Part shown: positions 8,137 to 30,381 of the stretch, one piece after another
Numbering within the stretch: the first letter of the stretch is position 1
Layout of the letters: every line of letters begins with the position of its first letter
Assembly: GCA_963727505.1 (NCBI GenBank)
Contig: CAVSGP010000003.1
Span: forward strand, 1 to 43,983
Length of the DNA: 43,983 nucleotides
Direction of reading: 5' to 3'
Origin: an uncultured Trueperaceae bacterium
Lineage (GTDB): Bacteria; Deinococcota; Deinococci; Deinococcales; Trueperaceae
The notes under the pieces: generated by a model
The model's database searches: none
Told to the model about the DNA's origin: nothing
Seen by the model: only the letters and a program-made list of their open reading frames with translations
Translations under genes and position numbers: made by a program

Positions 8137-8137
8137 C

Positions 8138-10500: not shown

Positions 10501-10552
10501 ACAACCGCCTCCTCCAGCGATGCGGGGCGCCTCCGAGCGCCCACGGGATGGA

Positions 10553-13256: not shown

Positions 13257-13266
13257 GGGCACGCAG

Positions 13267-13324
13267 TCACGATAGGCATCACGATAGGGCATCACGAGGC
13301 ATCACGACGGGCATCACGACGGGC
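13267..13324. repeat. Degenerate tandem array GGCATCACGA(n), 5 TCACGA cores at 10-13-bp spacing
   Basis: TCACGA at 13267, 13279, 13292, 13302 and 13314. Confidence 0.85.
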
Positions 13325-13373
13325 GACGTACCGGCGTGACGATCCCGCAGTCCTGGGCACGCACCAGGCGGGG

Positions 13374-13410
13374 CACGCCAGCCGGGACACGCCAGCCGGG
13401 ACACGCCAGG
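13374..13410. repeat. 14-bp tandem repeat CACGCCAGCCGGGA x2.6
   Basis: Read directly. Confidence 0.85.
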
Positions 13411-13496
13411 CAGCGCGCCGCCGGGACACAGCCGAATACAGCCGGGATGTGTCTGGGGGGCGCCGGGGGCCGACCGCACGGCGCCGGCACGGGCGC

Positions 13497-14855
13497 TCAA
13501 CGCCAGGGGAAGCCGATGCGGCGCCAGCCGGTGCGCATCTCGCGGAGCAGGTCGCGGGTGCGCCAGGACTCGGCCTCCTCGACCGGGCGCAGCAACCGCC
13601 ACGCCTGGCTGCGACCCAGGCCGGAGATCAGGAACAGCGAGTGGTAGCCCGTCCACGTCATCCCGAACAGGTGCAGCGGCGCGGTCTGCAACAGGGTCAA
13701 CAGCGGACCCGAGAGCACGCCGCCGAGGAAGCCAGCGATGCCCGCCACCAGGGAGTACATCGCGATGAAGGCGACCCTACCCTCGCTCGGCGCGGACACC
13801 AGCGCCAGGTTGAACAGCGCCGGGGTGGCGGCGCCCCACGCCAGCGCGTCGCAGAAGCCGGCGATCCAGATCCAGTAGACGTGACCGGTGAATCCCGCCA
13901 GGATCCAGGTGGCGGGCAGCAGCGTCCCGGCCAGGAAGGCGCCGAGCGCCAACACCGCCTTGTTCCCCACCCGGTCGGCCACGCGCCCCCACAGGCTGCT
14001 GGTGAGCAGCGCCGTGACGGCGGCGATGGCGCTCCAGATGGCGATCTCGGTGAAGGTGAGCTTGAGTTGCTGCAGGAAGTAGGGGATCACGAAGGGCGCT
14101 GCCAGCAGCACCACGAACTGCCAGTAAGCGGCGAAGAGCAGGAAGCGCCGGAAGTTCGCGTCCCTGAGGGGCGTCACCAGCACATCCCGCAGCGCGGCAC
14201 GGCGGCGCGGGCTGGGCGGGTCGTACTGCCGGAAGTACATCGCGACGCCGACTCCGGCGCTCAGCACCGCCATCACCATCACGACCTGGAAGCCGATCGG
14301 CGCCCCCACCCGGTCGAGGAACCAGCCCGCCGCGAGGTTCGCCAGCATGCCCACCACGCCCACGACGCCGGCGCGGTAGCCGAAGTAGCGGCCGCGCTGC
14401 TTCTCCGGCACGACGTCGCCCATCCAGGCACTCCAGAGCGTGCCGTTCGACGCCTGGAACAGCGAGGACACCAGCACCAGCAACACCATCAGGCCGGGCA
14501 GCTCGGCGGCCGGCAGCCCGAGGCTCGGGAGCAGCGCGGCCAGCACCCAGACGCCCCGGCCGAGGATCGCGACCAGGGCGGTCAACAGGCGCCGGCGCCC
14601 CAGCAGGTCGGCCGCCAGGGCGGCCAGCGGGCTGGCCGCCTGTGCCAGGAGCGGCACGCTTGCCACCAGGGCGATGTCGGTCGCGTTCGCCCCGAGGTGG
14701 AGCATGAACCCCACCAGCACGGCGCCCGAGGTCCAGTTGAGGAACACCTGGGTGGCGCTCCCCTCCACCACCGAGATGCGCATCGTGCTCCGGATGCGAT
14801 CGGCGATCGAGGGGTCGGGGCTTGCGGGTGTGAGGGGAGCGGAAGGCGTGGGCAT
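13497..14855 (-). CDS. MFS transporter
   Basis: About 12 hydrophobic segments; WMGDVVPEKQRGRYFG and WGRVADRVGNK motif-A-like sequence. Start uncertain (14855 or 14888). Confidence 0.85.
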   Translation of the reverse strand: MPTPSAPLTPASPDPSIADRIRSTMRISVVEGSATQVFLNWTSGAVLVGFMLHLGANATDIALVASVPLLAQAASPLAALAADLLGRRRLLTALVAILGRGVWVLAALLPSLGLPAAELPGLMVLLVLVSSLFQASNGTLWSAWMGDVVPEKQRGRYFGYRAGVVGVVGMLANLAAGWFLDRVGAPIGFQVVMVMAVLSAGVGVAMYFRQYDPPSPRRRAALRDVLVTPLRDANFRRFLLFAAYWQFVVLLAAPFVIPYFLQQLKLTFTEIAIWSAIAAVTALLTSSLWGRVADRVGNKAVLALGAFLAGTLLPATWILAGFTGHVYWIWIAGFCDALAWGAATPALFNLALVSAPSEGRVAFIAMYSLVAGIAGFLGGVLSGPLLTLLQTAPLHLFGMTWTGYHSLFLISGLGRSQAWRLLRPVEEAESWRTRDLLREMRTGWRRIGFPWR

Positions 14856-15006
14856 GGGGGTCAGGCGCAGGGAGCAGGCGTCCGGCAAGCACGCTCGGAG
14901 CCGTGAAGCGAACGACAGTCTACGGCACGGGCGAGGCCGTCCGCGAGGGGTCCGGTCACGGTCTGGCGCGTGCGCTTGCGCGGCGCCGAGGCGTCGGGGA
15001 CGAGCT

Positions 15007-15197: not shown

Positions 15198-15761
15198 GTG
15201 TACGAAACGGTGGCGGAGACACCGAGCGACGCCGAGCTGGTGCAACAGGTCGCGCAGGGCGAGAACGAGGCTCTGCGGGCGCTGTTCCAGCGCCACAGCG
15301 GCGCCGTGACCGCCCTCGCGCATCGCATGCTGGGTGATCGACAGGAGGCGGAGGAGATCCTTCAAGACACCTTTCTCAGGCTCCACCTGAACGCCCGAAG
15401 CTTCGACGGCCAGCGCGCGGCGCTCCGGACCTATCTGTTCGCCATCGCCCGCAACCTGTGCCTGTCGCGTCTGCGTGCCCGCTCGAGCCGCCCCCGCAAA
15501 GCGCTCGACGCCGACCCGCACGACGTCGCCTTCCAGGCGGCGGTGGGCACGTTCGACGACCCGCTGCCCGGCATCGTGGTCCGCGGGGCGCTGGCTCGGC
15601 TGGAGGCCGACGAACGCGCGCTGCTCGAAGCCGCCTTCTATCAGGGGTACAGCCACAGCGAGCTGGCGTCGCTGAACGGTATGCCGTTGGGCACCGTCAA
15701 GAGCCGCCTGCGGCGCGCGCTGGCCAAGTTGCGCGCGCATCTCGAGGGAGGAGCGCCGTGA
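15198..15761 (+). CDS. ECF RNA polymerase sigma factor
   Basis: SDAELV, AEEILQDTFL, YLFAIARN, GYSHSELA, PLGTVKSRLRRAL; GTG start after AAGGAAGG. Confidence 0.92.
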   Translation: MYETVAETPSDAELVQQVAQGENEALRALFQRHSGAVTALAHRMLGDRQEAEEILQDTFLRLHLNARSFDGQRAALRTYLFAIARNLCLSRLRARSSRPRKALDADPHDVAFQAAVGTFDDPLPGIVVRGALARLEADERALLEAAFYQGYSHSELASLNGMPLGTVKSRLRRALAKLRAHLEGGAP

Positions 15762-16531
15762 GAGCCGACCCGACCCTCCACGAGATGCTGCCCGACTACC
15801 TGCTGGGCTTGCTCGAGCCGTCCGAAGCGGCGCGCTTGGAGGTGGCGCTGGCGCGCTCGGCGGAGCTGCGGGCGCAGGCGGACGCCCTGCGCGCCGCGCT
15901 GTTCGCGCTCCCGGAAGCGCTCGAGCCCGAGCCGCCGGCACCGGGCTCCTGGGAGACGCTGCTGGGGCGGGTCCGGGAAGAGCGCGCCGGGGAAGAGCAT
16001 GCCGGACCCGCAGCTGCCGGCAACGTTGCAGCCACGTCCGCCGGCGCCGCGCCCGCCGGCGTCGCGGCCGCCGGCAGCGCTCCACGTTCCACCACGGCGC
16101 CACGTCCCCGCACGGCGCCGCGCCGCCCCGTGCTGGCGGTGGCGCTGGCCATCGCCCTGGCCCTGCTCGTCGCCACCGCGGGCTGGGGCGCGCTGCAGCA
16201 GCGGCGCGCCGACCTCGCGGCGCACGAGGAGGCGATCGTCGCCTACTGGATGCGCATCCCGGACCTGAGCATCGTGTCGCTCGACGCCGTGCAGGGCGGC
16301 CACCCCGGCGTGGCCTGCGTCCTGCCCGATGGCCGCGCCATGGTGCTGCAGCCGCACGCGCCCCGGCCGGGCCGGTCCTACGTGCTCTACGGCCTGACCG
16401 GCACCGGCCGGGTGGAGCTGGGCCGCACGAGGGGCCGCCTCATCCTGTTCCGCGCCGACGGACTGACCGGCGTGGAACTTGCGATCAGCGGCCCGTCGGG
16501 CAGCGTGATCGCCAGGGCCAGCCTGAACTGA
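15758..16531 (+). CDS. Membrane anti-sigma factor (RskA-like)
   Basis: GTGA coupling to the sigma gene; LPDYLLGLLEPSE anti-sigma N-terminus, one TM helix, short extracytoplasmic domain. Confidence 0.8.
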   Translation: MRADPTLHEMLPDYLLGLLEPSEAARLEVALARSAELRAQADALRAALFALPEALEPEPPAPGSWETLLGRVREERAGEEHAGPAAAGNVAATSAGAAPAGVAAAGSAPRSTTAPRPRTAPRRPVLAVALAIALALLVATAGWGALQQRRADLAAHEEAIVAYWMRIPDLSIVSLDAVQGGHPGVACVLPDGRAMVLQPHAPRPGRSYVLYGLTGTGRVELGRTRGRLILFRADGLTGVELAISGPSGSVIARASLN

Positions 16532-16553
16532 CGCCTCCCACCGGGACCCCCTC

Positions 16554-17837
16554 CTAGGAGGCCACGCCGCACCAGTCGAGCGCGGCGCGGGCCAGCACCT
16601 TGGTCACGTTGCGCACGCTGGGGAGGTCGACCCACTCGTCCGGCGCGTGCAGGTTGGCCCCCACGGGACCGTAGCAGGTCGCCGGGATGCCGTGATGATG
16701 GGAGAAGAAGCGCACGTCGGTGGTCGCCGTGCTGATGTAGGGCCGGGCCTCCCCGCCCATCACGGTGCGGTGGGCGGCGCGCAATGTGTCGAACAGGGGC
16801 GTCGCGGGGTCGACCACGCAGCCCTCGGCCTTGAAGCCGTAGAACGCGATCTCCGGCGGGTGCTCGGCCAGCCACGGGTCACCGGCCGCGTACGCCCGGA
16901 GGTCGTCGCGGAAGCGCGCCTGCGCCACGTCCAGATCGGCACCGGGGTAGGCCGAGAAGCGCACCTCGAGGACGCACTCCGACGGGACCGAGGAGGGCCA
17001 GTCACCGCCACGCACCACCCCCACGTTGTAGTTGAGCGGGTGGTCGACATCGCGGTAGGCCTCGTGACGGGCGCCGGGATCGTTGGCCGCCGCCTCCATG
17101 TCCCGGATCCCCTGCATCAGGAAGGCCGCCTTCTCGTTGGCGTTGACCGCCTTGTCGGCGCCGAGCGCGTGCGCGCCCGCGCCGAGCACGGTGACCCGCG
17201 CCCACAGCACGCCGATCTGGGCGGTGAGCAGCGTCTGGTTGAAGGGCTCGGGGATGATGGCGGCGTCCGCCCGACCGTCGTCCGCCAGCGAGCTCACGGC
17301 CGCCAGGCTGCCGTTGCCGGTGCACTCCTCCTCGATCACCGTCTGCAGGAGCACGTCGCCGGCCAGCTCGACGCCGGCTCGCCGGATGGCCGCGACGGCG
17401 TAGATCATGGCCGCGACGCCCGACTTCATGTCGGCCGCGCCGCGCCCGTACATCCGCTCCCCCTGGATCTCGGCACCCCAGGGATCGACCGTCCACAGCC
17501 GCTCGGGGGTGGCCGGCACCACGTCGATGTGGCCGTTGAACACCAGCGAGCGCCCGCCTCCACGGCCCTGGACCCGCGCGCCCACGTTGGGGCGGCCCTC
17601 GTACGCCCAGCCCACCGGCGAGTAGCCCGGCAGCCGGGCGATGGCGGCGTGATCGACCTCCTGCGCAACGGCCTCGAGGCCGATGGCGCGGAGCTCTTCG
17701 ATCACCCGCTCCTGCGCGGCGCGCTCGTGGTGAAGCGTGCTGCGGCGCCGCACCAGCTCCTGCAGGAAGGCGACCTCGGCGTCCCAGGCCGCATCGATGC
17801 TGCGCTCCACCGTCGTCCAGACCTCGTTCGTGCTCAT
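16554..17837 (-). CDS. ArgE/DapE (M20) deacylase, YodQ-like
   Basis: FNGHIDVVP, YGRGAADMKSG, IEEECTGNG, IIPEP, HAPDEWV; ATGA overlap with the upstream stop. Confidence 0.9.
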   Translation of the reverse strand: MSTNEVWTTVERSIDAAWDAEVAFLQELVRRRSTLHHERAAQERVIEELRAIGLEAVAQEVDHAAIARLPGYSPVGWAYEGRPNVGARVQGRGGGRSLVFNGHIDVVPATPERLWTVDPWGAEIQGERMYGRGAADMKSGVAAMIYAVAAIRRAGVELAGDVLLQTVIEEECTGNGSLAAVSSLADDGRADAAIIPEPFNQTLLTAQIGVLWARVTVLGAGAHALGADKAVNANEKAAFLMQGIRDMEAAANDPGARHEAYRDVDHPLNYNVGVVRGGDWPSSVPSECVLEVRFSAYPGADLDVAQARFRDDLRAYAAGDPWLAEHPPEIAFYGFKAEGCVVDPATPLFDTLRAAHRTVMGGEARPYISTATTDVRFFSHHHGIPATCYGPVGANLHAPDEWVDLPSVRNVTKVLARAALDWCGVAS

Positions 17838-18613
17838 GACCGACCTCCCGAGGCGTCGTGCGCGGTCCCGCGCGCGGCGTCGTCCGCCGCGTCGTCCGCG
17901 GCGTCCTCCGCCGTGTCCTCGACCGTGTCCTCCAACGTGTCCTCCAACGCGTCCTCCAGTGCGTCCTCCATGACCGCCACCGGCCCGTCCGTCGCGACCG
18001 GGACCGGCGTGGCGGCCCGCACCTCCTCGACCGAAACTCCGCGCGCGCGCTCCCGGAGCACCAGGCCGTCCGCGGTGACCGTGAACAGGCCCAGCTCGGT
18101 GACGATCGCGCTGGCGGCGCGCGGCGCCGTGAGGGGCAGGTCGCAACGCTCCACGATCTTCGGCGTGCCGTCGCGGGTGCGGTGGCGCGTCAGCACGACG
18201 GTGCGCCGCGCCTTGGCGGCCAGCTCCATGCTGCCGCCCATGCCGGGGCTGGGGCCGCCCGGAGCCTTCCAACTGGCGATGTCGCCGCGGCCGCTCACCT
18301 GCATGGTGCCGAGCACCGCCGTGCCGAGACGCCCGCTGCGCACCAGCGCGAAGGCCAGCGCACTGTCGAAGGTGGCGGTCTCCGGCACGCGCGAGATCGG
18401 CTCGCCGCCCGCGTTGATGAGGTCGACGTCCTCCTCGCCCGCGGGCGGGCGCGGCCCGATGCCGGCAACGCCGTCCTCGGCGAACAGCACCACCCGCCGC
18501 CGGGGCGGGATGTAGTTGCCGACCAGCGTGGGCAGCCCGATGCCGAGGGCGACCAGCTCGCCGTCCTCGAGCAGCAGCGCCGCCCGCCGCGCGATCAGCT
18601 CACGTGGGTCCAC
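17834..18613 (-). CDS. 3-oxoacid CoA-transferase subunit B (YodR-like) with an acidic repeat tail
   Basis: LGIGLPT, FAEDG (catalytic Glu position), PGMGGSMELAAKA, CDLPLT, IVTEL. Confidence 0.88.
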   Translation of the reverse strand: MDPRELIARRAALLLEDGELVALGIGLPTLVGNYIPPRRRVVLFAEDGVAGIGPRPPAGEEDVDLINAGGEPISRVPETATFDSALAFALVRSGRLGTAVLGTMQVSGRGDIASWKAPGGPSPGMGGSMELAAKARRTVVLTRHRTRDGTPKIVERCDLPLTAPRAASAIVTELGLFTVTADGLVLRERARGVSVEEVRAATPVPVATDGPVAVMEDALEDALEDTLEDTVEDTAEDAADDAADDAARGTAHDASGGRS

Positions 18614-18647
18614 GACGGGGCCTCCTTCCCGCTCACGACTTCGGCGC

Positions 18648-19364
18648 TCACGTCTTCGGGGCCGGGACGCCGGCGGGCACCGGGCTGCCCGGCACCAGGT
18701 AGTCGACGAAGGCCCCTGGGATGTGGACGCTGTCGGGGTCGAGCTCGCCGGCCGGCACCAGGGTGCGGACCTCGGCGATGACCACGTCGGCCGCCATGGC
18801 GACCAGGGGGTTGAAGTTGCGTGCCGTGCCGCGGAACACCAGGTTGCCGTAGGCGTCGCCGACGTCGGCCAGCACGATGCCGAGCGGCGCGCGGATGGCG
18901 GGCTCGAGCAGGTAGGGGCGGCCGTCCATCTCGACGATGCGCTTGCCCTCCTCGACCTCGGTGCCGGTCCCCACGTCGATCAGGATGCCGCCGAGACCGG
19001 CGCCGCCGGCGCGGATCTGCTCGGCCAGCGTGCCCTGCGGCACGAAGGTCACCTGCAAGCGGCCCTCGTTCATCTGGGTTACGGCGATGGGGTTGGAGCC
19101 GATATGCGAGACCACGGCGCGCTCCACCTGTCCGGCGCGGATCAGCCGCCCCACCCCGTGCGAAGGGTAGCCGGCATCGTTGCCGATGATGTTCAGGCGC
19201 CGGAAGCCGGCCGCCACCAGCGCGTCGATGAGCAGCGGCGGCGTGCCGATGCTCCCGAACCCCCCGAACAGCAGGGTGGCGCCGTCGGCGAACAGCCCCA
19301 TGGCCGCCTCGGCGTCGATGATCTTGCCGTGACTCCCGCTCCCCTGCAGCTGCGCAGCCGCCAT
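18648..19364 (-). CDS. 3-oxoacid CoA-transferase subunit A (YodS-like)
   Basis: LFGGFG, NDAG, SHIGSNP, PQGTLAEQIRAGGAGLGG, TARNFNPLVAMAA. Confidence 0.92.
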   Translation of the reverse strand: MAAAQLQGSGSHGKIIDAEAAMGLFADGATLLFGGFGSIGTPPLLIDALVAAGFRRLNIIGNDAGYPSHGVGRLIRAGQVERAVVSHIGSNPIAVTQMNEGRLQVTFVPQGTLAEQIRAGGAGLGGILIDVGTGTEVEEGKRIVEMDGRPYLLEPAIRAPLGIVLADVGDAYGNLVFRGTARNFNPLVAMAADVVIAEVRTLVPAGELDPDSVHIPGAFVDYLVPGSPVPAGVPAPKT

Positions 19365-19398
19365 GCGCTACGCCTCCTCCCCCGTCACGCGTTCCCTG

Positions 19399-20877
19399 TC
19401 ATGCATCGCCTACCGCCAGGCGATCGTACGCGTCGCGCCAGGGGCGCGCCCGCTCGAAAGCGGCGCTGGCGGCGAGCACGCGCGCGTCCTCGAAGCGACG
19501 GCCGATGAGCTGCAGGCCCACCGGAAGGCCCTCCGGCGTGGTGCCGGCGGGGATCGAGGCCGCCGGGTGCCCGGTGAAGTTGATCGGGTAGGTGAGGCAC
19601 CACCCGATGAAGGGATCGACGCGCTGCCCCTCCACCTCATCGGGGCCGCGCGTCGTGCCGTCGGCGGCGTTGTCGATGCCGGCGACCGACAGGGTGGGCG
19701 TCACCAGCAGGTCGTGATGGTCGAAGACGTCCTGCAGAGAATCGAAGACCTCGGTCCGGAGCACGTCGTCGAGCCGGTAGTCCACGGCAGCGACCCCGCG
19801 CCCGCGCTCGAGCTTGTGGCGGTAGTCGGGGTCGAGCTCGCCGGCGAGCTCGCCCAGCAGGTCCACACCCGCCCGGGCCATCGACACCGCCGACTCGACC
19901 GCGCGCACGGCGCTGGTGCGCGTCCACATGTCGGCCAGCTCCTGGTGCGGGCGCGTCCAGGCGAGGTCGATGCGCTCGACATGCATGCCGAGCTCCTCCA
20001 GCGCGCCCAGCGCGCGCTCGACCGCCGCGCGCACCCGCGGCTCGACGGGGAACCCCCCGAAGTCGGGGCTGTAGGCCACCCGCATCCCGGCAACCGGAGC
20101 GCGCGTGGCGGCGACCAGGTCGTCGCCCAGATCGGGCAGGCTGAGCGGGTCGCGAGGGTCGGGCCCCACCATCGTTTGCAGCATGAGCGCGGCGTCCTCG
20201 ACCGTGCGCGTCAACGGCCCGCTGTGGGCGTAGGGGGTATGGAGCAGGAAGCCGTCCGGGCGGGCGGCGACCGGCACCCGCCCGAACGTCGCCTTGAAGC
20301 CGTAGACCCCGCACAGCGCGGCGGGGATGCGGATCGAGCCTCCGCCGTCGGAGCCCTCGCCCAGCGGCGCGAGACCGGCCGCCACGGCGGCGGCGCTGCC
20401 GCCCGACGAGCCGCCGGCGTTCTTGCCGGGCGCGAAGGGGGTGCTGGTGGGGCCGAACAGGCGGTTGTCGGTGGTGCCCTTGTAGCCGAACTCGGGGGTG
20501 TTGGTCTTACCCAGAGCGATCGCTCCCGCCGCCTCGAGCCGCGCCACGGGCGTCGACGTGACGGCGGCGACGTGGTCGCGGAAGGGCAGCGAGCCGTAGG
20601 TGGTGCGCACGCCCGCCTTGGTCTCGAACAGGTCCTTGAGGGCGAAGGGCACGCCGTGCAACGGGCCCAGCGCGTCGCCGCGCATCACCGCCCGCTCGGC
20701 GTCGCGCGCGGCCTCGAGCGCGGCCTCGGCGAGCACCGTGACGTAGGCGTTGATCGAAGGGTTGCGCCGCTCGATCGCTGCGAGGTGTGCCTGAACGACC
20801 TCCACGGGCGAGATGCGGCGCGTCCTCATGGCGAGCGCGAGCTCGCCGGCGGAAGAGGTGAGGGGGGTGGGGTCCAA
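19399..20877 (-). CDS. Amidase-signature family amidase
   Basis: PLHGVPFALKD, GKTNTPEFG, GGSSGGSAAAVAAG, GSDGGGSIRIPA (Lys-cisSer-Ser triad). Confidence 0.93.
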   Translation of the reverse strand: MDPTPLTSSAGELALAMRTRRISPVEVVQAHLAAIERRNPSINAYVTVLAEAALEAARDAERAVMRGDALGPLHGVPFALKDLFETKAGVRTTYGSLPFRDHVAAVTSTPVARLEAAGAIALGKTNTPEFGYKGTTDNRLFGPTSTPFAPGKNAGGSSGGSAAAVAAGLAPLGEGSDGGGSIRIPAALCGVYGFKATFGRVPVAARPDGFLLHTPYAHSGPLTRTVEDAALMLQTMVGPDPRDPLSLPDLGDDLVAATRAPVAGMRVAYSPDFGGFPVEPRVRAAVERALGALEELGMHVERIDLAWTRPHQELADMWTRTSAVRAVESAVSMARAGVDLLGELAGELDPDYRHKLERGRGVAAVDYRLDDVLRTEVFDSLQDVFDHHDLLVTPTLSVAGIDNAADGTTRGPDEVEGQRVDPFIGWCLTYPINFTGHPAASIPAGTTPEGLPVGLQLIGRRFEDARVLAASAAFERARPWRDAYDRLAVGDA

Positions 20878-20949
20878 ACGAGGCTCCGTTTTCGTGGGCG
20901 TGCCGCGCCGGCCCGCAGCGAACGCGCGGGACCGGGCGCGGACCGGGGC

Positions 20950-21725
<776 letters not shown>

Positions 21726-21729
<4 letters not shown>

Positions 21730-22499
21730 GCGTCCCCCTCGTCATCGTCCGCGGAAGCGGCCTGCAGCCGGGCCATGGGGCGCCCGCGGCGTCTACGGAT
21801 GGGGTCGGCGACGACCTCCAGATAGCTGAACAGGAAGCTGCCGACCATGGATAGCGCAAGATAGATGACCGCCGCGGCGGCCCACATCATGGCGGGCTGG
21901 TAGTTGTAGGAGATGGCCCGCTCGGTACTGAGGGTGAGCTCCACCACGCTGATGGTGGACGCCAGCGAGGAGTCCTTGAGGAGCGCCAGGGCGTAGTTTC
22001 CGAAGGGCGGGATCATCAGCCGGACCGCGGGCGGGATGATCACGAAGCGCATGATGTCGCGCCCGCCCAGGCCGAGACTGGCCGCCGCCTCCGCCTGGCC
22101 CTTGTGGATCGACTCGATGCCGGCGCGGATCACCTCGGATAGGTAAGCGCCGTACCCCAGCGACAGCGCCAGCACCGCGGCCGCGAACGGGGTGAGGTGT
22201 GGGGGGAGCATGACGCTCCCCCCGCTGAGGGGCTCGAACACCAGCCGGTTCAGCCAGGCGAAGATCTGCGGCGTCGCGAAGTAGGCGAAGAAGATCTGCA
22301 CCAGCGCCGGCGTGCCGCGGAACAGCTCGACGTAGAACCTCGCCACCCCCTTGACCACCACGTTCCCGGAGCGCCGCATGAGCGCGGCGACCAGCCCGAA
22401 GAGCAGCGCCAGACCGTAGGTCAGCACGCTGAGCTCGACGCTCAGGACGGCGCCCTTCAACAGGGCGTGGAGGATGGCGGGGGTGACGACGTTGCCCAT
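21726..22499 (-). CDS. Polar amino acid ABC transporter permease
   Basis: [37 protein letters not shown]. Confidence 0.94.
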
Positions 22500-22525
22500 G
22501 CTCTAGCAGGTCCCTCCGGTCACGC

Positions 22526-22561
22526 GGTGGTGACTACTTGGTGGTGACTACTTGGTGGTGA
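22526..22561. repeat. 14-bp tandem repeat GGTGGTGACTACTT x2.6 duplicating the SBP stop codon
   Basis: Read directly; the real stop (CTA) is at 22548-22550 and its copy at 22534-22536. Confidence 0.85.
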
Positions 22562-23348
22562 TCGGCATATCGAAGCAGCGCGAAACGATGTCCTGATTGA
22601 ACCACTTCATGCTGATCTGCTTGAGCGTCCCGTTGTTGTTCAGCTCGACGAGCGCCTTGTTCAGGGCGGCCTTGAGGTCGGTGTTCTGCTTGGCGACCGT
22701 GACGTTGGCCAGGTCGATGTAGAGCAGGTCGCCGACGGGCTTCAAGGGGGCGCCCTGGGTGATGGCGTAGGAGCCCACTGCCAGATCGGTCACCAGGCCG
22801 CCGACGATGCCCGACTGCACGGCCTGGATGCCGGTGGGGTCGTCCTTGTAGGTCTTGAAGTCATAGCCGTTCTTGGTGAGCCAGCCCTCGTAGGTGGTGC
22901 CGAGCGCGACGGCCACCGGCTGCTTCATCTGGCTGATGTCGGTGACGTTGGAGCTCTTGGGAACGAAGAGCTGTGCGCCGCCGCAGTGGTACGGGTGGTC
23001 GAGATAGTCGACCGCCGTCGCTCGCTGCGGGGTGTACGCCTGGCTGGCCACGGCGACATCGAAGATGCCGGACTGGACGCCCTGGACGATGGTGGAGAAC
23101 TCGGCGGCGTCGACGCGAGCGGTGACCCCGAGCTGCTTGGCCAGCGCCTTGGCGACGTCGGCGTCGTAGCCGACGAGCTGCTGGTCGGCGTTGAAGAGGC
23201 TGAACGGCGGGTAGCCGCCCGACATGACCAGGATCATGTAGCCGCGCTTCTGGATCGTGGCCAGGTCCGCCGCGCTGGCGATGCCACCTACCAGGAGCAC
23301 CGCTGCCAGCACGGCTCCGAATACGATCTTCATGCGTGCACGTGTCAT
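22548..23348 (-). CDS. Polar amino acid ABC substrate-binding protein (family 3)
   Basis: Signal peptide, YPPFS, GYDADVA, GTTYE, ISMKWF; RBS GGAGG before ATG 23348. Confidence 0.9.
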   Translation of the reverse strand: MTRARMKIVFGAVLAAVLLVGGIASAADLATIQKRGYMILVMSGGYPPFSLFNADQQLVGYDADVAKALAKQLGVTARVDAAEFSTIVQGVQSGIFDVAVASQAYTPQRATAVDYLDHPYHCGGAQLFVPKSSNVTDISQMKQPVAVALGTTYEGWLTKNGYDFKTYKDDPTGIQAVQSGIVGGLVTDLAVGSYAITQGAPLKPVGDLLYIDLANVTVAKQNTDLKAALNKALVELNNNGTLKQISMKWFNQDIVSRCFDMPITTK

Positions 23349-23406
23349 TCCTACCTCCATACCGGAGCCTTGCTCTCCAGCATTGCTCCCACGAAAGGGT
23401 GGCCGG

Positions 23407-24774
23407 TCAGGTGCGTTGCGGCGCCGGCGTGCCGAGCTCGTGCTCGAGCGCACTCAGGGCACCGTCCACCATTCCGACCAGGGCATCGACTTCCGCCGCG
23501 TCGATGGTGAGCGGCGGAGCGATCATCACGGCGTCCCCAGCGCCCTCCAGGGCGCCGGCGGCCGGGTAGATGAGCAGCCCCCGTTCGAACGCGTGGCGCA
23601 CCAGGCGCCCCGTGACGTTCGCTTCGGGGGGGAAAGGGGCGAGCGACCCGTCGGCCACGAGCTCGAGCCCGACCAGGAGGCCGAGGCCGCGCACGTCGCC
23701 GAGGACGGGGTGGCGCGCCGCGAGGGTCTTCAGGGCGTTCATGAGCTGCTCGCCGCGCTCGCGCGCGTTCCCGACCAGGTCGTGGTTCTCCACGTAATCG
23801 AGGACGGCCAGCGCGGTGGCGGCGGACAGCGGGTTGAAACTCAGGGTATGGCCGTAGAGGACGGAGCCGGAGCCCCGCCGGATCGGCTCCATCAGCTCGT
23901 CGGTCGCGACGACCGCCGCGACGGGGGTGTAGCCGGCGCCGAGGCCCTTGCCGAGCACCAGCAGGTCCGGGACGACCCCGTAGTGCTCCACGGCGAACAT
24001 GGCGCCGGTGCGCCCCATCCCCGTCATGACCTCGTCGGCGATGAAGAGGACGTCGTTGGCGTCGCAGATGGCGCGGATCTTCGCGTAGTACTCGGGCGGC
24101 GGCGTGATGGCGGCGCCGCTGGCGCCCACCACGGGCTCGGCGATGAAGGCGGCGACGTTGTCGGCGCCCAGCGCGTCGATGCGCGCCTGCAGATCGTCGG
24201 CGCACGCCACCGCGCACGACGGGTACGCGAGCCCCAGGGGGCAGCGCAGGCAGTAGGGGGTGGCGACCTGCGCGTCCTTGGCCAGCAGCGCCTCGAAGCG
24301 CGAGCGCCGCAGCACGTGGCCGGACATCGACAGCGCCCCCAGCGTGACGCCGTGGTAGCTGATGCGCCTGGACAGCACGTGCGTCTTCTCCGGCCGCCCG
24401 CGCTCCTGCCAGTGCTGCAGGGCCATCTTCGCGGCCAGCTCGGTGGCCTCGCTGCCGCTGTTGACCAGGAACAGCCAGCGCAGGCTGCCCGGCGCCAGCG
24501 CACCGAGGCGCTCGGCCAGCGCGTCGGACGGGCGGTTGCCGAACTGCGAGCGGAACGCGAAGGTGAGCGTCTCGGCCTGCGCGCGCATGGCCTCCAGCAC
24601 CTCCGGCACGCCGTGCCCGATGTTGGTGTTGACGGCGCCGGAGCAGCCGTCGAGGTAGCGGCGTCCCCCCTCGTCGTAGAGGTAGAGCCCTTCGCCCCGC
24701 ACCGCGGTGGGCGGAGCAGCCTCGACCAACGGGTGGATGACGTAGCCGGAACGATCCGGCGCGCCGACGCTCAT
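23407..24774 (-). CDS. Class-III PLP aminotransferase, YodT-like
   Basis: YLDGCSGAV..NIGHG, FAFRSQF, VNSGSEA, SYHGVTLGALS, AEPVVGASGAAITPPP, ADEVMTGMGRTG, LGKGLGAGY. Confidence 0.9.
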   Translation of the reverse strand: MSVGAPDRSGYVIHPLVEAAPPTAVRGEGLYLYDEGGRRYLDGCSGAVNTNIGHGVPEVLEAMRAQAETLTFAFRSQFGNRPSDALAERLGALAPGSLRWLFLVNSGSEATELAAKMALQHWQERGRPEKTHVLSRRISYHGVTLGALSMSGHVLRRSRFEALLAKDAQVATPYCLRCPLGLAYPSCAVACADDLQARIDALGADNVAAFIAEPVVGASGAAITPPPEYYAKIRAICDANDVLFIADEVMTGMGRTGAMFAVEHYGVVPDLLVLGKGLGAGYTPVAAVVATDELMEPIRRGSGSVLYGHTLSFNPLSAATALAVLDYVENHDLVGNARERGEQLMNALKTLAARHPVLGDVRGLGLLVGLELVADGSLAPFPPEANVTGRLVRHAFERGLLIYPAAGALEGAGDAVMIAPPLTIDAAEVDALVGMVDGALSALEHELGTPAPQRT

Positions 24775-24778
24775 CGCC

Positions 24779-26089
24779 TCACCCCAGGGCCCCTTCGGCC
24801 CGCACCGCTTCGAACGCATCGGCGAGGATCGCGAAGGCACGCTCGAGCTCGTCGTCCTCGACCGAGAGCGGGACCAGCACACGCAGCACATTGCCGTCCC
24901 GGCCCGCCTTGAGCAGCAGCAGGCCACGCCGGCGCGCCTCAGCGATGACGCGCTCGGTGAGCGCGGCGCCGCGGCGCACGCCATCCTCGCCGGGAACGAT
25001 CAGCTCCGCGGCCACCATGGCGCCGAGCCCGCGGACCTCCACGATGACGTCGTGCTCGGCCTTCAGCGCCTCGAAGCGTTCGAAGAGGGCCGTCCCCAGG
25101 GCGCCGGCGCGCTCCAGCAGGCCGGTCTGCTCGAAGACGTCGAGCACGGCCAGCGCCGCGGCGCACGCCAGCGGGTTGCCGCCGTAGGTGCCGCCGAGGC
25201 CGCCCGGATCGGGAGCGTCCATGACGTCGGCGCGGCCGATCACACCCGACAGCGGGAGCCCGCCGGCGAGGCTCTTGGCCACCGTGATGAGGTCGGGCAC
25301 GACGCCGCTGTGCTCGATCGCGAAGAGGCGGCCGGTGCGCCCGAAGCCGCTCTGGATCTCGTCGGCGATCAACAGCATGCCGTGGCGCTCGGTGAGCTCC
25401 CGAAGGGCGCGCAGGAAGGCGAAGGGGGCGGGTACGAAGCCGCCCTCGCCCAGCACCGGCTCGATGAGGACGGCGGCGACCCGCTCGGGCGCCACCTGGC
25501 TGGCGAGCACGTCGTCGAGCGCGCGCAGGGCGTCGTCGACGCTCCAACCGCGCAACGGGTAGGGGAACGGCGCGTGGAACACGTCGGGCGCGAACGGCCC
25601 GAAGTTCTGCTGATAGGGGTTGGTCTTGCCGGTGAGCGTCATGCCCAGCAGCGTGCGCCCGTGGAAGCTGCCGCTGAACGCCAGGATGCCGGAGCGGCCG
25701 GTAGCGGCCCGTGCGATCTTGACGGCGTTCTCGACGGCCTCGACGCCGGTCGTGAGCAGCAGCGTCTTCTTGGGCGCCGCGCCCGGCGCCAGCGCGTTGA
25801 GGCGCTCGGCGAGCCGTACGTAGGGCTCGTAGATGGCGACCTGCGCCGAAGTGTGGCTGAAGCGCTCGAGCTGCGCCTGCACCGCGTTGGTCACCCGCTC
25901 GTTGGCGTGACCGATGTTCATGACGCCGATGCCACCCGTGAAGTCGATGTACTCGGCGCCGTCCACGTCCCACAGGCGCGCGCCCTTGGCCCGTGCCGGG
26001 AAGATCGGGTGTGCCGTGGCCAGCCCTCGTGGGACGTTGTTGTCCCGGACCCGGCCCAGAAGTACATTACGGGATTCAGCGGACTCCAC
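24779..26089 (-). CDS. gabT: 4-aminobutyrate (GABA) aminotransferase
   Basis: IDFTGGIGVMNIGH, EAVENAVKIAR, FHGRT, EPVLGEGGF, DEIQSGFGRTG, AKSLAGGLPLS, GGTYGGNP. Start probably GTG 26089, because the ORF-finder GTG at 26125 sits inside the -10 box. Confidence 0.88.
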   Translation of the reverse strand: MESAESRNVLLGRVRDNNVPRGLATAHPIFPARAKGARLWDVDGAEYIDFTGGIGVMNIGHANERVTNAVQAQLERFSHTSAQVAIYEPYVRLAERLNALAPGAAPKKTLLLTTGVEAVENAVKIARAATGRSGILAFSGSFHGRTLLGMTLTGKTNPYQQNFGPFAPDVFHAPFPYPLRGWSVDDALRALDDVLASQVAPERVAAVLIEPVLGEGGFVPAPFAFLRALRELTERHGMLLIADEIQSGFGRTGRLFAIEHSGVVPDLITVAKSLAGGLPLSGVIGRADVMDAPDPGGLGGTYGGNPLACAAALAVLDVFEQTGLLERAGALGTALFERFEALKAEHDVIVEVRGLGAMVAAELIVPGEDGVRRGAALTERVIAEARRRGLLLLKAGRDGNVLRVLVPLSVEDDELERAFAILADAFEAVRAEGALG

Positions 26090-26123
26090 CGCGACCCAGC
26101 GCCCCTTTCCTGTTGGACGGCTC

Positions 26124-26200
26124 ACCCTACCCCAGGAAGCTGCGGGGTGCTACGGATTCGACTCACAATTGCCCTAGTCGCTTTTGTCCTCCAGTGACAA
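26124..26200 (-). promoter_or_regulatory. Putative PucR-family operator TTGTC-N7-GACAA plus TTGTG half-site and TAGGGT -10 for the gabT operon
   Basis: Palindrome 26184-26200, half-site 26168-26164, -10 at 26129-26124. Confidence 0.6.
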
Positions 26201-27907
26201 GATCTCGGCGGCGAGCTGCAGCTCGAAGCGCATCCCCGGCTCGGAGAGGTCGGCGCGAAGCGCCTGGGACACGCGCTCGAGCCGGTAGCGCACGGTGTTG
26301 ACGTGCACCCCCAGCTCCGCGGCGGCGCGCTTCGCCTCGAAGCCGGTACGCGACCAGGCCACCAGCGTGGCGACCAACCGCGGCCCGCCGCGCAGCGCGC
26401 GCACGGGACCGAACACCTCGTCGAGAAGCGCGGCGCGGGCGTCGGCGTCGCCGAGCAGCACCCGCGGCACCAGCCAGGCCTCGTAGAGCAGCACCCGCCG
26501 GGGCTCCAGGTGGGGGAGCAGCGAGCGCGCCTCCCGGAAGCTGAGCTCGATGCCCTGCACCCCGTTGCGGGCGCGGCCCCACACCATCCCCACGGACGCG
26601 TCGACGTGCCCCACCTCCAGCGCGCGCGGGTCGAGGTCCTCCTCCAGCAGCACGCTCACCTCGTTGAGGGACACCGACAGGAAGGGGGTGCCCCCCAGGT
26701 CGGCGATGCGGCGCCCCAGGCGATCGGCGAGCTGCTCCCGGCGCAGGAAGTCCTCGCGCGACAGGGGCAGCGACACGTCGTGCAACACCGCGATCCCGAC
26801 GCGATAGCTGCGCTCCCACTCGAAGCCGTTCAGGCGGGCGCGCTCCAGGTTCTGGGGGGTGGGCTCGAGCCGTCCCTCCAGCAACGAGTCGAGGAAGGCG
26901 TAACCGAGCCGCGACTCGAGCTGCGCCAACGTCTGCTGGTGAGCGATGTGCAGCGCCACCACGGTGGCGGCGTGCTCGGCGGCGCGGAGGTCGAGCTCCC
27001 CGACCGGACTGTCCCCCTCGATCACCCACACCAGCCCCACCAGCTCGCCGCTCACCCGGATAGGGCAGGCGACGCGGGCCGACAGCTCCAACTCGGGCAG
27101 CGCCGGCACGCGCACGGGATCCTTCTGGGTGCGCAGCCTCTGCAGGTAGCCCAACCGCTCGAGCTCGGCCATGACGTCGGGGGGCGTGACCCCCTCGCTG
27201 AGGGTGGAGGCGCGCACGCGGTCGCGCACGCGGTCGCGCACCCGCCCTGCGCCCGCGCCGGCCTCGCCCGCACCTGCCCCGCCCGCACCGGCCTCGGGCG
27301 CACCGGCCTCGCCCGCACCTGCCTCGGGCGCACCGGGTCCGGGCGCACCGGGCTCGGCGGGCAGGTAGGAGGCGGCGTAGAGCTGGCCGGTCGGGCTCTC
27401 GAAGGTCACGTCGCGCTGGATCAGCTCGCTCAGGACGTTGGCGATCTGCTGCAGGCTGGAGGCCTGGACGGCGGCCTGGGTGAGCGCGCGGTGGATGGCC
27501 TCGGAGCGCTCGATCACCCGGTGCTGCTCGGCCAGCAGCGCCCGCTGCGCCTCCTCGGTGATGCGCGCGAAGGGGATCTCCCAGGGCAACTCCAGCACCG
27601 GCAGCGCAAGCGCGTCGGCTTCGGCCACGACGGTCGGCGGCACCTCGCTGAAGAACTGCGGCACCGCCAGCGCCAGCGCTGCCAGGCCGTGTTCGTCGAG
27701 CGAGCGCACGAACCGGCGCTGCCCCTCGACGTCGCGCGGCCAGGCGTAGCCGGTGCTCAGCAGGAGCTGCCCCGGCTGCAGCCACTCGTGAGGGTCCGGG
27801 ATGTCGACCACGCCGGCCCAGCGCACCTCGCGGTCGACGCCCGCACGGCCGGCCACCAGACGGGCCCGGCCCAGCAGCGGCAGCGTCATCAACTCGGACA
27901 TGCGCAC
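26174..27907 (-). CDS. PucR-family transcriptional regulator
   Basis: N-terminal PucR sensing domain (VAGRAGVDREVRW, WLQPGQLLLSTG) and C-terminal HTH (AAAELGVHVNTVRYRLER); internal Gly/Ala repeat insertion. Confidence 0.92.
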   Translation of the reverse strand: MRMSELMTLPLLGRARLVAGRAGVDREVRWAGVVDIPDPHEWLQPGQLLLSTGYAWPRDVEGQRRFVRSLDEHGLAALALAVPQFFSEVPPTVVAEADALALPVLELPWEIPFARITEEAQRALLAEQHRVIERSEAIHRALTQAAVQASSLQQIANVLSELIQRDVTFESPTGQLYAASYLPAEPGAPGPGAPEAGAGEAGAPEAGAGGAGAGEAGAGAGRVRDRVRDRVRASTLSEGVTPPDVMAELERLGYLQRLRTQKDPVRVPALPELELSARVACPIRVSGELVGLVWVIEGDSPVGELDLRAAEHAATVVALHIAHQQTLAQLESRLGYAFLDSLLEGRLEPTPQNLERARLNGFEWERSYRVGIAVLHDVSLPLSREDFLRREQLADRLGRRIADLGGTPFLSVSLNEVSVLLEEDLDPRALEVGHVDASVGMVWGRARNGVQGIELSFREARSLLPHLEPRRVLLYEAWLVPRVLLGDADARAALLDEVFGPVRALRGGPRLVATLVAWSRTGFEAKRAAAELGVHVNTVRYRLERVSQALRADLSEPGMRFELQLAAEILSLEDKSD

Positions 27908-28036
27908 GATGCCGTCAGCCTACCCTCCGGCGGGTCTACGCGACCGGGGCGTTCCTCCCCTTGGGACGTTCTTCCTTTCGGACGGCCGAGCGTTTACCGT
28001 AGCGTCGGAGCGAAGGAAGCACGAGAGGGAAGCATC

Positions 28037-29314
28037 ATGCGCATCGTGACCGCAGAAGAGGCCGTCCGCGTCGTCCGTTCGCGCGACCGCGTGTTCGTCC
28101 ACAGCGTCGCCGCCGCGCCGCAACGGCTGATCGTGGCGCTCACCGCCCGCTGGCGCGAGCTGCAGGGCGTCGAGTTGATCCACCTCCACACCGAGGGGCC
28201 GGCACCCTACACCGACGCCGCCTACGCCAGGAGCTTCCATACCAGCGCCCTGTTCGTCGGCCCCAACGTCCGGGCCGCGGTCGAACAGGGCCAGGCCGAC
28301 TACATCCCCATCTTCCTGAGCGAGGTGCCGGAGTTGTTCCGGAGCGGAGCCATGCCGCTCGACGTGGCGCTGGTGCAGGTCTCGCCGCCCGACCGGCACG
28401 GCTACTGCTCGCTGGGCGTGTCGGTCGACACCAGCCGCGCCGCCGTCCACGCCGCACGCACCGTGATCGCGCAGGTCAACCCGAACATGCCGCGAACGCA
28501 CGGCGACGGCCTGCTGCACCACTCCAACATCGACCTGGCGGTCGAGGTCGACGACCCCATCCCCGAGGTACCCCGCACCCCGCCGAGCCCGGAGGCGCGC
28601 GCCATCGGCATCCATTGCGCCGCCCTGATCGAGGACGGCGCCACTCTGCAGATGGGCATCGGCGCCATCCCCGACGCGGTGCTGGCGGCGCTGGGCGACC
28701 ACCGCGACCTGGGCATCCACACCGAGATGTTCTCCGACGGCGCCGTCGACCTGATCGAGAGCGGGATCATCACCGGCGAGCGCAAGGTGAGCCACCCCGG
28801 CAAGGTGGTGGCGAGCTTCGTGATGGGCACGCGCCGGCTCTACGACTTCGTCGACGACAACCCGCTGGTGGTCCTGCTCGACGCCGGCTACGTCAACGAC
28901 ACCGCCGTCATCCGCCGCAACCCGCGCGTCACCGCCATCAACAGCGCCGTCGAGGTCGACCTGACGGGCCAGGTGTGCGCCGACTCGATCGGCACCCGCC
29001 AGTACTCGGGCGTGGGCGGGCAGATGGACTTCATGCGTGGGGCCTCGCTCTCGGAAGGCGGCAGGCCGATCATCGCGCTGCCCTCCACCACCAGCCGTGG
29101 CGAGAGCCGCATCGTGCCGTTCCTGAAGCAGGGAGCCGGTGTGGTGACGACCCGCGCGCACGTCCACTTCGTGGTGACCGAGTACGGCGTGGCCAGCCTC
29201 TACGGGAAGGCGCTGAGGCAGCGGGCGCGGGCGCTCATCCACATCGCCCACCCGGACCACCGGCAGGCGCTGGAGCGTGCGGCCTTCGAGCGCTTCCACC
29301 GGATGCCCGCCTGA
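28037..29314 (+). CDS. Acetyl-CoA hydrolase / 4-hydroxybutyrate CoA-transferase family
   Basis: LQMGIGAIPDAV, LGIHTEMFSDG, GVGGQMDF, VVTEYGVA, IAHPDHR; RBS GAGAGGG, ATG 28037. Confidence 0.93.
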   Translation: MRIVTAEEAVRVVRSRDRVFVHSVAAAPQRLIVALTARWRELQGVELIHLHTEGPAPYTDAAYARSFHTSALFVGPNVRAAVEQGQADYIPIFLSEVPELFRSGAMPLDVALVQVSPPDRHGYCSLGVSVDTSRAAVHAARTVIAQVNPNMPRTHGDGLLHHSNIDLAVEVDDPIPEVPRTPPSPEARAIGIHCAALIEDGATLQMGIGAIPDAVLAALGDHRDLGIHTEMFSDGAVDLIESGIITGERKVSHPGKVVASFVMGTRRLYDFVDDNPLVVLLDAGYVNDTAVIRRNPRVTAINSAVEVDLTGQVCADSIGTRQYSGVGGQMDFMRGASLSEGGRPIIALPSTTSRGESRIVPFLKQGAGVVTTRAHVHFVVTEYGVASLYGKALRQRARALIHIAHPDHRQALERAAFERFHRMPA

Positions 29315-29340
29315 GGCGCCGCCGGAACCGCCGCCGCGAC

Positions 29341-29389
29341 CACCGCTGAAGTACACCGCTGATAGCGCACCGTTGATAGCGCACCGCTG
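29341..29389. repeat. 13-14-bp tandem repeat CACCG(C/T)TGATAGCG x~3.5
   Basis: Units start at 29341, 29354, 29368 and 29382. Confidence 0.8.
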
Positions 29390-29472
29390 CGACCCCGCCG
29401 GCGGGCCCCACAACGTGCGGCGCCCGCCGCCTAGAAAGGCAGCGAGCGCCGCAATTCAGCCCTGAAGGCGAT

Positions 29473-29682
29473 TCAGGCGCGTTTACGTTGCTTCGTGCTG
29501 GCGCCGAACAGGCTGTACAGCGGGCAGAAGCCCACCAACCCGGTGAGCAGCAGGATCGCTCCGACGATGGCGAAGACAACCATCCAAACGCCGGAAACCC
29601 ACCCGAAGACCCACGCGGAGAGCAGAACGAGCCCGGCGATGACCCGGATGACCCGATCGGTAGCGCTTTCGTTGATCGTCAT
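29473..29682 (-). CDS. DUF2892 (YgaP-like) small membrane protein
   Basis: NESATDRVIR, two TM helices, TGLVGFCPLYSLFGAST; RBS AAGGAGG. Confidence 0.9.
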   Translation of the reverse strand: MTINESATDRVIRVIAGLVLLSAWVFGWVSGVWMVVFAIVGAILLLTGLVGFCPLYSLFGASTKQRKRA

Positions 29683-29754
29683 GGCCTTGCCTCCTTGTCC
29701 TTGTCAGGAGCATAGCGCACTATTCCCGCCATAGGAATGGTAGAAATAGGAACA

Positions 29755-30381
29755 ATGTCGAGCCGTGACGATCTCCTCCGACACCTCAAGCTCCGCGGGC
29801 CCAGCACGGTGCGCCAGCTCGCCGAGGCCACCGGGCTGTCGGACAACGCGGTGCGCCACCACCTCGCGCGCCTACGGCACCAGGGCTTCGTCGACGAGCA
29901 CACCGAACGTGAGGGGGTGGGGCGTCCGGCCCACCACTACACCCTCACGGCACTGGCCGAGGGGGCGTTCCCCAAGCGCTACGTCGACCTGCTGGAGGCC
30001 GTGCTCGAGAGCGCCGCGGCGCGCGGCCTGCTCGACACGCTGCTCGACGATGTGGCGGCCGCGCTGGCCGCGCGCGTCAAGGACGAGCTCGAGCCGCTCC
30101 CGCCGCGCGCGCGGCTGCTCAAGTTGATGCAGCAGCTCGACTACGGCGAGATGCTCGGGCGCCTCGCCAACACCCCGGGAGGCTGGGAGTTCGAGGCCTA
30201 CAACTGCGTCTACCGCGCCACCGGAGAACGCTTCGTCGGCGTCTGTGACCTGCTTCCCAAGGTCGTCGTGGACGCCACCGGGATGGCCGCCGAGCGGGTC
30301 CGCTGCCAGCGCGACGGGAACCACACCTGCCACTTCGCGGGCAGCTACGCCTCGGCCGACGACGGCGCTCGGGACGGCTGA
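29755..30381 (+). CDS. Winged-HTH regulator with a Cys-rich C-terminal domain (COG2345/SufR-like)
   Basis: HTH TVRQLAEATGLSDNAVRHHL, GVGRP, FPKRY; YNC, GVC and RCQRDGNHTC cysteines. Confidence 0.85.
   Translation: MSSRDDLLRHLKLRGPSTVRQLAEATGLSDNAVRHHLARLRHQGFVDEHTEREGVGRPAHHYTLTALAEGAFPKRYVDLLEAVLESAAARGLLDTLLDDVAAALAARVKDELEPLPPRARLLKLMQQLDYGEMLGRLANTPGGWEFEAYNCVYRATGERFVGVCDLLPKVVVDATGMAAERVRCQRDGNHTCHFAGSYASADDGARDG

Follow-up and report, generated by a model that had tools for sequence, protein, structure and literature searches.

A candidate operon for the import and degradation of N6-acetyl-beta-lysine in an uncultured Trueperaceae bacterium

What does a gene cluster resembling the yodT-yodS-yodR-yodQ genes of Bacillus do in a genome in which the genes for making N6-acetyl-beta-lysine are not found? 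The question is raised by a stretch of DNA of 43,983 nucleotides from an uncultured Trueperaceae bacterium (contig CAVSGP010000003.1 of assembly GCA_963727505.1, G+C 72%), the whole of which is here called the window. Methanogens and some bacteria use N6-acetyl-beta-lysine as a major compatible solute, and an earlier note on this DNA had proposed that a set of genes in the window takes up and catabolises this compound or a related amino acid. On balance we lean towards the view that the operon would import N6-acetyl-beta-lysine made by other microbes and degrade it via 4-aminobutyrate (GABA), using a thiolase encoded elsewhere, a deacetylation and the GABA transaminase GabT. The scavenging interpretation of the earlier note thus stands as a candidate: the gene neighbourhoods and reciprocal best hits described below agree with it, the synthesis genes KamA and AblB were not found, and the substrate and the roles of the amidase and of the divergent CoA-transferase are what we infer.

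The run of minus-strand genes at 16554-27907 was picked out, and its frames are supported by codon-position GC. Pfam and NCBIfam scans recovered every gene that the earlier note had listed, ten on the minus strand and a divergent one on the plus strand (16554-29314), with the importer, the amidase and GabT among them; the order and coordinates given there are correct, and the gene starts have been refined. In the direction of transcription the operon reads PucR, GabT, class-III aminotransferase, SBP_bac_3 binding protein, permease, ATP-binding cassette (ABC) ATPase, amidase, coenzyme A (CoA) transferase subunits A and B, and M20 deacylase. The features are as follows.

28037-29314, plus strand: divergent family-I CoA-transferase, 425 residues (Pfam AcetylCoA_hydro and AcetylCoA_hyd_C)
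27908-28036, no strand: intergenic region of 129 nucleotides between the PucR gene and the divergent CoA-transferase gene, placed from the gene starts
26174-27907, minus strand: PucR-family transcription regulator, the first operon gene (Pfam PucR 119.3 bits, HTH_30 61.7 bits, GGDEF_2)
24779-26125, minus strand: GabT, 4-aminobutyrate:2-oxoglutarate transaminase (TIGR00700, 522.8 bits against a cut-off of 506.65)
23407-24774, minus strand: YodT-type class-III aminotransferase, 455 residues (NF005375/PRK06917, 601.5 bits against a cut-off of 535)
22548-23453, minus strand: solute-binding protein of a polar-amino-acid ABC importer (Pfam SBP_bac_3), with a likely start near 23360
21726-22499, minus strand: ABC importer permease (Pfam BPD_transp_1; TIGR01726 above cut-off)
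20950-21729, minus strand: ABC importer ATPase (Pfam ABC_tran 135.3 bits; GlnQ-like, 340.5 bits, below the cut-off of 379)
19399-20877, minus strand: amidase-signature amidase (Pfam Amidase, 347.7 bits over the whole profile)
18648-19364, minus strand: 3-oxoacid CoA-transferase subunit A (alpha), in the YodS position (Pfam CoA_trans 200.7 bits; TIGR02429, 206.7 bits against a cut-off of 128.5)
17834-18613, minus strand: 3-oxoacid CoA-transferase subunit B (beta), in the YodR position (Pfam CoA_trans; TIGR02428, 241.1 bits, just below the cut-off of 243.55)
16554-17837, minus strand: M20 ArgE/DapE-family deacylase, 427 residues, in the YodQ position (NF005306, 496.5 bits against a cut-off of 376)

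Short gaps or overlaps are found between the minus-strand operon genes throughout. With the refined starts, four nucleotides separate the stop of GabT from the start of the aminotransferase, and the M20 gene starts within the last nucleotides of the CoA-transferase B gene. The yodTSRQ order of aminotransferase, CoA-transferase A, CoA-transferase B and M20 is kept on one strand and is interrupted by four inserted genes. We would describe the operon as a catabolic one, with a module of the yodT-yodS-yodR-yodQ type into which an ABC importer and an amidase are inserted, and with PucR and GabT placed in front. The 129-nucleotide intergenic region (27908-28036) is presumed to hold the control region; the start of the divergent gene is an ATG at 28037 behind a GAGAGGGAAG stretch. 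A consensus scan of 15500-30000 returned no promoter-like sites and three terminator-like sites, where 3.1 were expected.

Do the window's proteins group with their Yod-type homologues? The Bacillus comparison was made with B. albus L027, a member of the B. cereus group, in place of B. subtilis 168, and the yod names are applied by synteny. In the window's genome (G000, of which the window is contig C3) the four L027 module proteins have their best matches either in the window's genes or in the copies of these on contig C10. In the forward direction, which was run for the M20 deacylase, the module M20 is the best match of the window's protein in all four Bacillales genomes tested. The aminotransferase is 52-62% identical to its Bacillales homologues, with the L027 protein scoring 853.1 bits against NF005375; CoA-transferase A is 46-56% identical to the module subunit A in Bacillales, and CoA-transferase B is 38-53% identical to the module subunit B. 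When 91 aminotransferases are placed in a tree with GabT as the root, the window's protein sits in a clade of six within a group of 41 rows, 34 of which have the module. The module label changes six times over this tree, as against a mean of 28.9 when the labels are shuffled, and none of 500 shuffles gave a count as low. Two rows of the Bacillales clade that are scored as having no module are loci ended by contig ends, and five aminotransferases of the same group, from Streptomyces, Arthrobacter and Ottowia, do lie outside a module. The earlier note had pointed to a likeness to the Yod proteins in the same order. The aminotransferase model, the kept gene order, the reciprocal best hits and the position of the aminotransferase inside the module-linked group of the tree all bear this out, with the M20 deacylase falling below the cut-off of its YodQ-type model.

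The module is not confined to Bacillus. Fourteen aminotransferase homologues were aligned, and the alignment retrieved 80 loci from the contigs of one genome per species. The four genes for aminotransferase, CoA-transferase A, CoA-transferase B and M20 lie in this order on one strand in 29 of these loci, which derive from Bacillales, Cyclobacteriaceae, one Actinomycetota metagenome-assembled genome (MAG) and one Planctomycetaceae MAG, and hence from Bacillota, Bacteroidota, Planctomycetota and Actinomycetota. Near the module lie a GNAT gene (25 of the 29 loci), KamA (20), a sigma-54 activator (17), GabT (nine), an aldehyde dehydrogenase (eight), PucR (six) and a thiolase (five). All three of the GNATs tested exceed the cut-off of TIGR03827 (AblB, putative beta-lysine N-acetyltransferase), and the one KamA tested is above that of TIGR03820 (lysine 2,3-aminomutase), such that the neighbourhoods agree with the tie to beta-lysine from which the earlier note had argued. 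A thiolase is found inside or beside the module in seven of 35 loci, two of the seven being relatives from the window's own family. In two Cyclobacteriaceae MAGs (L037 and L038) an AblB-type GNAT follows the module and a divergent DcuC-family carrier precedes it, the latter being a different type of transporter at the same position.

In B. albus L027 the genes run aminotransferase, CoA-transferase A, CoA-transferase B, M20, AblB, sigma-54 activator and KamA, which is the yod/kam arrangement. This order agrees with what has been described for B. thuringiensis, in which six genes lie upstream of kamA and the yodT-yodS-yodR-yodQ-yodP-(kamR)-kamA 'kam locus' is treated as an L-lysine metabolic pathway (PMC4428206). 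The window shares with the kam locus the NF005375 aminotransferase, the two-subunit CoA-transferase and the M20 deacylase, as well as their order and reciprocal best hits. It differs in that KamA, AblB/YodP and the sigma-54 activator are missing from it, in the binding protein, permease, ATPase and amidase that lie between the aminotransferase and the CoA-transferase, and in having PucR and GabT in front. The M20 deacylases also differ, that of the window belonging to NF005306 and that of Bacillus to the YodQ-type NF005373.

Further loci bear on the direction of the pathway and on uptake. The locus of Paenibacillus tyrfis (L011, 4548-18301) contains an ABC importer, PucR, a Glu-type dehydrogenase, the aminotransferase, CoA-transferase A and B, a thiolase, M20, GabT and an aldehyde dehydrogenase, and in its close relative P. 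elgii (L032) the locus continues with AblB and KamA. Taken together these read as a complete route from lysine to succinate, which suggests that the module is catabolic and that the thiolase is likely to be the cleavage step; the P. tyrfis/P. elgii locus would be a good experimental model. In Sporolactobacillus nakayamae (L013) an ABC importer directly follows the aminotransferase, and neither KamA nor AblB was found in the genome. The binding proteins of Sporolactobacillus and Paenibacillus both have the window's binding protein as their best match in G000, at around 30% identity. In Halobacillus halophilus (L071, genome G122) PucR is divergent from the aminotransferase/CoA-transferase/M20 module and an AblB-type gene lies on another contig; no match to TIGR03820 (lysine 2,3-aminomutase) was found in this genome.

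Within the window's family the same cluster is present in G115, G246 and G071, which belong to the window's genus, and in G112 and G235, which belong to two other genera. The genes flanking it in G112 and G235 differ from those of the window. The clusters of these two genomes keep the order of their other genes, and neither the ATPase nor the divergent transferase was found there; the divergent transferase is present in all five copies of genus g1. In every copy of the cluster, across the three genera, the amidase accompanies the importer and lies between the aminotransferase and the CoA-transferase. The relatives G021 and G066 carry only an uninterrupted aminotransferase, CoA-transferase A/B and M20 together with a thiolase. 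Among metagenome contigs, all 12 loci with an amidase at least 68% identical to that of the window have the same neighbouring genes over the length that each contig covers. Since the cluster recurs in relatives from three genera and in these 12 contigs, the arrangement is not due to chance. At the level of the order the aminotransferase has a match at E<=1e-100 in eight of 121 genomes, six of which carry the module, and the system is therefore patchy and not universal. The importer-linked, biosynthesis-free form of the yod-type module is a new form of a known system.

KamA (PF12544, TIGR03820) and AblB (TIGR03827) were not found in G000, which is 97.4% complete, nor in G115, G071, G112, G021, G066 and G235, all of which are 95-98% complete and carry the module. 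The gene content, its conservation and this absence of synthesis genes are direct observations. The window contains no thiolase, BKACE, KamA or AblB gene, in keeping with the earlier note, which had found the synthesis genes absent and the cleavage step missing from it; four thiolases are encoded in G000, all of them away from the window. A BKACE-type enzyme was considered for the cleavage and rejected, as PF05853 has no match in the genome. A candidate succinate-semialdehyde dehydrogenase is found on another contig (638 bits, near the cut-off of 646.35).

How might the pathway run? All of the chemical steps below are proposed from family membership and gene association. In the first step a binding-protein-dependent importer would take in N6-acetyl-beta-lysine, or a close N-acyl derivative of beta-lysine, from other organisms. 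The SBP_bac_3 binding protein, BPD_transp_1 permease and ABC ATPase lie side by side and are of the polar amino acid (PAAT) type; a signal peptide is visible in the N-terminal sequence of the binding protein. The best match of this protein in the PDB is 3vv5 (118.9 bits), the binding protein of an amino acid ABC transporter, which reportedly binds Lys, Arg and Orn. No substrate-specific equivalog reached its cut-off for the importer in the NCBIfam scan. The aminotransferase, with 3i4j as its best match in the PDB, is the proposed N6-acetyl-beta-lysine transaminase and would yield 6-acetamido-3-oxohexanoate. This would be converted to its CoA ester by the two-subunit CoA-transferase, which is assigned to the 3-oxoacid family by NCBIfam, and a thiolase encoded elsewhere would then cleave the ester to acetyl-CoA and 4-acetamidobutyryl-CoA.

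In the next step the CoA may be handed to the next molecule of 3-oxo acid by the same transferase, or to acetate by the divergent enzyme. The latter has both AcetylCoA_hydro domains, as in the 4-hydroxybutyrate CoA-transferase family, and matches the 4-hydroxybutyrate CoA-transferase 9vag at 525 bits (E 1e-156) and 2oas at 486 bits; against TIGR03948 it reaches 298.6 bits, below the cut-off of 674.8. Its closeness to 4-hydroxybutyrate CoA-transferases is in keeping with a 4-substituted butyrate as the acyl group, and it would seem suited to moving CoA from 4-acetamidobutyryl-CoA to acetate.

The acetyl group would then be stripped by the M20 deacylase, the amidase or both to give GABA. The M20 protein, which matches PDB entry 3pfo at 267.5 bits, is the proposed GABA-releasing deacetylase, and the amidase is proposed to act in the deacetylation alone or with it. 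Enzymes of the Amidase signature family have a Gly/Ser-rich signature containing residues with catalytic roles, and aryl acylamidases take N-acetyl groups off amines. The closest solved relative of the window's amidase is an aryl acylamidase, 4yj6 (409 bits over residues 8-486), with which its GGSSGG and GGGSIRIPAA stretches align and are conserved. That two hydrolases are kept could mean that they divide the free acid and the CoA ester between them, that one of them salvages a lactam formed as a side product, or that the amidase works on a different conjugate that is imported. Homologues of the amidase at 62% identity or more, in genomes and in metagenome loci, occur only inside this cluster; those at 34-58% identity (genomes, and 67 of the 79 metagenome loci) have no cluster genes nearby. 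A search of the ESM Atlas with the amidase returned generic 'Amidase' clusters only. Two paralogues, around 36% identical, lie elsewhere in the genome (G000:C14:52901-63685 and G000:C5:135263-137621), one in the vicinity of a further polar-amino-acid ABC transporter and of an aldehyde dehydrogenase, the other divergent from a thiolase.

Finally, GabT would convert GABA to succinate semialdehyde, which an unlinked dehydrogenase would oxidise. The route logic, from transamination of N6-acetyl-beta-lysine to transamination of GABA, is that of the L-beta-lysine pathway of Pseudomonas B4 as reported by the Barker laboratory (around 1979-1981). There N6-acetyl-beta-lysine is reportedly transaminated to 3-keto-6-acetamidohexanoate, a C2 unit is said to be removed to leave a 4-acetamidobutyryl thioester, and this is said to be deacetylated to the level of GABA, which is then transaminated. 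In the window the last of these steps would fall to GabT, which is above the cut-off of TIGR00700. The Pseudomonas cleavage enzyme is said to depend on acetyl-CoA and to yield acetoacetate; no BKACE-type gene was found in the window's genome, where CoA-transferase and thiolase are the likely equivalent. The anaerobic fermentation of lysine, which uses KamA, KamDE, Kdd, Kce and Kal, likewise starts from beta-lysine chemistry. It differs in that the window's route would run via an N-acetylated 3-oxo acid and GABA and not via 3,5-diaminohexanoate, and no aminomutase or Kce/BKACE was found in G000, Kdd and Kal not having been searched for.

PucR is probably an activator of the operon that responds to GABA or to an intermediate of the pathway. 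In Corynebacterium glutamicum a PucR-type regulator, GabR, controls GABA utilisation through gabTDP (PMC7652997). In both cases the regulator adjoins gabT; in the window it points the same way as gabT and is the first of the ten genes of the operon, and neither gabD nor gabP is present in the cluster.

A number of observations weigh against import and degradation of N6-acetyl-beta-lysine. The binding protein matches only generic polar-amino-acid models. As N6-acetyl-beta-lysine is already acetylated, one deacetylase should suffice, and the conserved amidase would be surplus or otherwise employed. The window's M20 protein is just 32-38% identical to those of Bacillales and scores 310.3 bits against the YodQ-type model NF005373 (PRK06915), below the cut-off of 428, where the M20 proteins of the Bacillales modules reach 717-842 bits. 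Neither the thiolase nor the semialdehyde dehydrogenase is linked to the operon, and so their involvement is assumed. The Paenibacillus loci hold the importer and KamA/AblB together, which means that an importer by itself is no sign of scavenging. YodT is given as uncharacterised in a 2019 survey of B. subtilis pyridoxal phosphate-dependent proteins (PMC6522883).

The amidase and the binding protein also bear on another possibility, one that we consider rather unlikely, namely that the imported compound is free beta-lysine or one of its conjugates, for instance a peptide or part of a beta-lysine antibiotic. It would then be freed or processed by the amidase and an unlinked acetyltransferase would make the N6-acetyl intermediate, the rest of the route being the same. 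On this reading the conserved amidase would act before the core module, and its constant place with the importer, between aminotransferase and CoA-transferase, would be accounted for, as would the relationship of the binding protein to 3vv5, whose reported ligands are basic amino acids. Halobacillus halophilus, with the module and an AblB-type gene and no KamA, fits uptake of beta-lysine there. However, the seven genomes of the family that were tested yielded no AblB-type acetyltransferase, no gene of the cluster points to a conjugate, and the closest solved relative of the amidase removes acetyl groups and is not peptide-cutting.

Could the likeness to the yod genes reflect shared chemistry only, the substrate being some other amino compound that ends at GABA, for example 4-acetamidobutyrate, the lactam 2-pyrrolidinone or another beta-amino acid? 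Class-III aminotransferases, M20 deacylases and amidase-signature amidases are broad families, and no specific equivalog of known substrate was matched. The M20 deacylases of the window and of Bacillales fall in different NCBIfam models, and the five aminotransferases of Streptomyces, Arthrobacter and Ottowia show that members of the same group occur without the module. Use of 4-acetamidobutyrate or of the lactam, however, needs no 3-oxoacid CoA-transferase, the order of the four core genes is kept across phyla with its ties to AblB (25 of 29 loci) and KamA (20 of 29), and the reciprocal best hits of the M20 deacylase hold. We therefore regard a different substrate of this kind as quite improbable. 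That there is no single system at all, and that a GABA unit of PucR and GabT (a stand-alone arrangement known from PMC7652997), an unrelated importer with its amidase, which do look like an inserted block, and a yod-like remnant are simply adjacent, with no promoter or terminator from the consensus scan to bound a transcript, is very improbable given the same order in three genera with different flanking genes and in 12 of 12 metagenome contigs, the short gaps or overlaps on one strand, and the GabT and PucR genes that accompany the module in other phyla too.

If N6-acetyl-beta-lysine is indeed the substrate, the cluster would supply genes for enzymes to which none was found assigned. In the searchable literature, with subscription journals outside its scope, no gene assignment was found for the N6-acetyl-beta-lysine route, its intermediates, EC numbers or the yod genes, nor, with the original B4 papers also outside it, was any sequence assigned to EC 2.6.1.65 or to the Pseudomonas B4 enzymes. 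It is quite possible, though somewhat less likely than not, that the cluster and yodTSRQ encode the orphan enzymes of aerobic beta-lysine degradation (N6-acetyl-beta-lysine transaminase, and 4-acetamidobutyrate or 4-acetamidobutyryl-CoA deacetylase), with CoA-transferase and thiolase replacing the classical cleavage enzyme. The importer form would then be the first dedicated system by which non-producers feed on N6-acetyl-beta-lysine, an osmolyte released by methanogens and others. The chemistry itself is not new and the case for it is one of comparative genomics. A route at the level of genes would give sequences to activities known only biochemically since about 1980, would explain the uncharacterised yodTSRQ genes of Bacillus, and would let the turnover of N6-acetyl-beta-lysine be traced in metagenomes. 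It would also supply a beta-amino-acid transaminase and N-acetyl hydrolases of possible biocatalytic use.

The second copy of the cluster in G000 deserves comment. The window contig (1-43983) is collinear with G000:C10:1110-44517 at 81-94% nucleotide identity, housekeeping genes included, and C10 is in turn 99.5% identical to the relative G115 over 19.9 kilobases. The assembly therefore probably holds one region from two congeners, a duplication of 44 kilobases being the less likely alternative. The M20 copy on C10 (G000:C10:17158-18477) carries two compensating frameshifts that scramble around 95 residues, the NGHIDVVP stretch among them; in G115 the gene is undamaged, and five gap openings separate the two copies over 1.46 kilobases. 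The broken copy was considered as a hint that the amidase can replace the M20 deacylase, and this was rejected, because the near-identical (99.5%) gene of G115 is intact and an assembly error is likelier.

Elsewhere in the window, a minus-strand run at 10553-14888 contains an argininosuccinate-lyase-like Lyase_1 gene, an Amidohydro_2 gene and an MFS transporter, and downstream of it are a sugar-type binding protein (9232-10659) and a permease (7288-8181). On the plus strand at 34716-37199 there is an open frame of 827 residues with a gene-like third-position GC of 0.89 and no Pfam match at E<=1e-5, which in part covers the start of a thioesterase gene on the minus strand (34384-34818).

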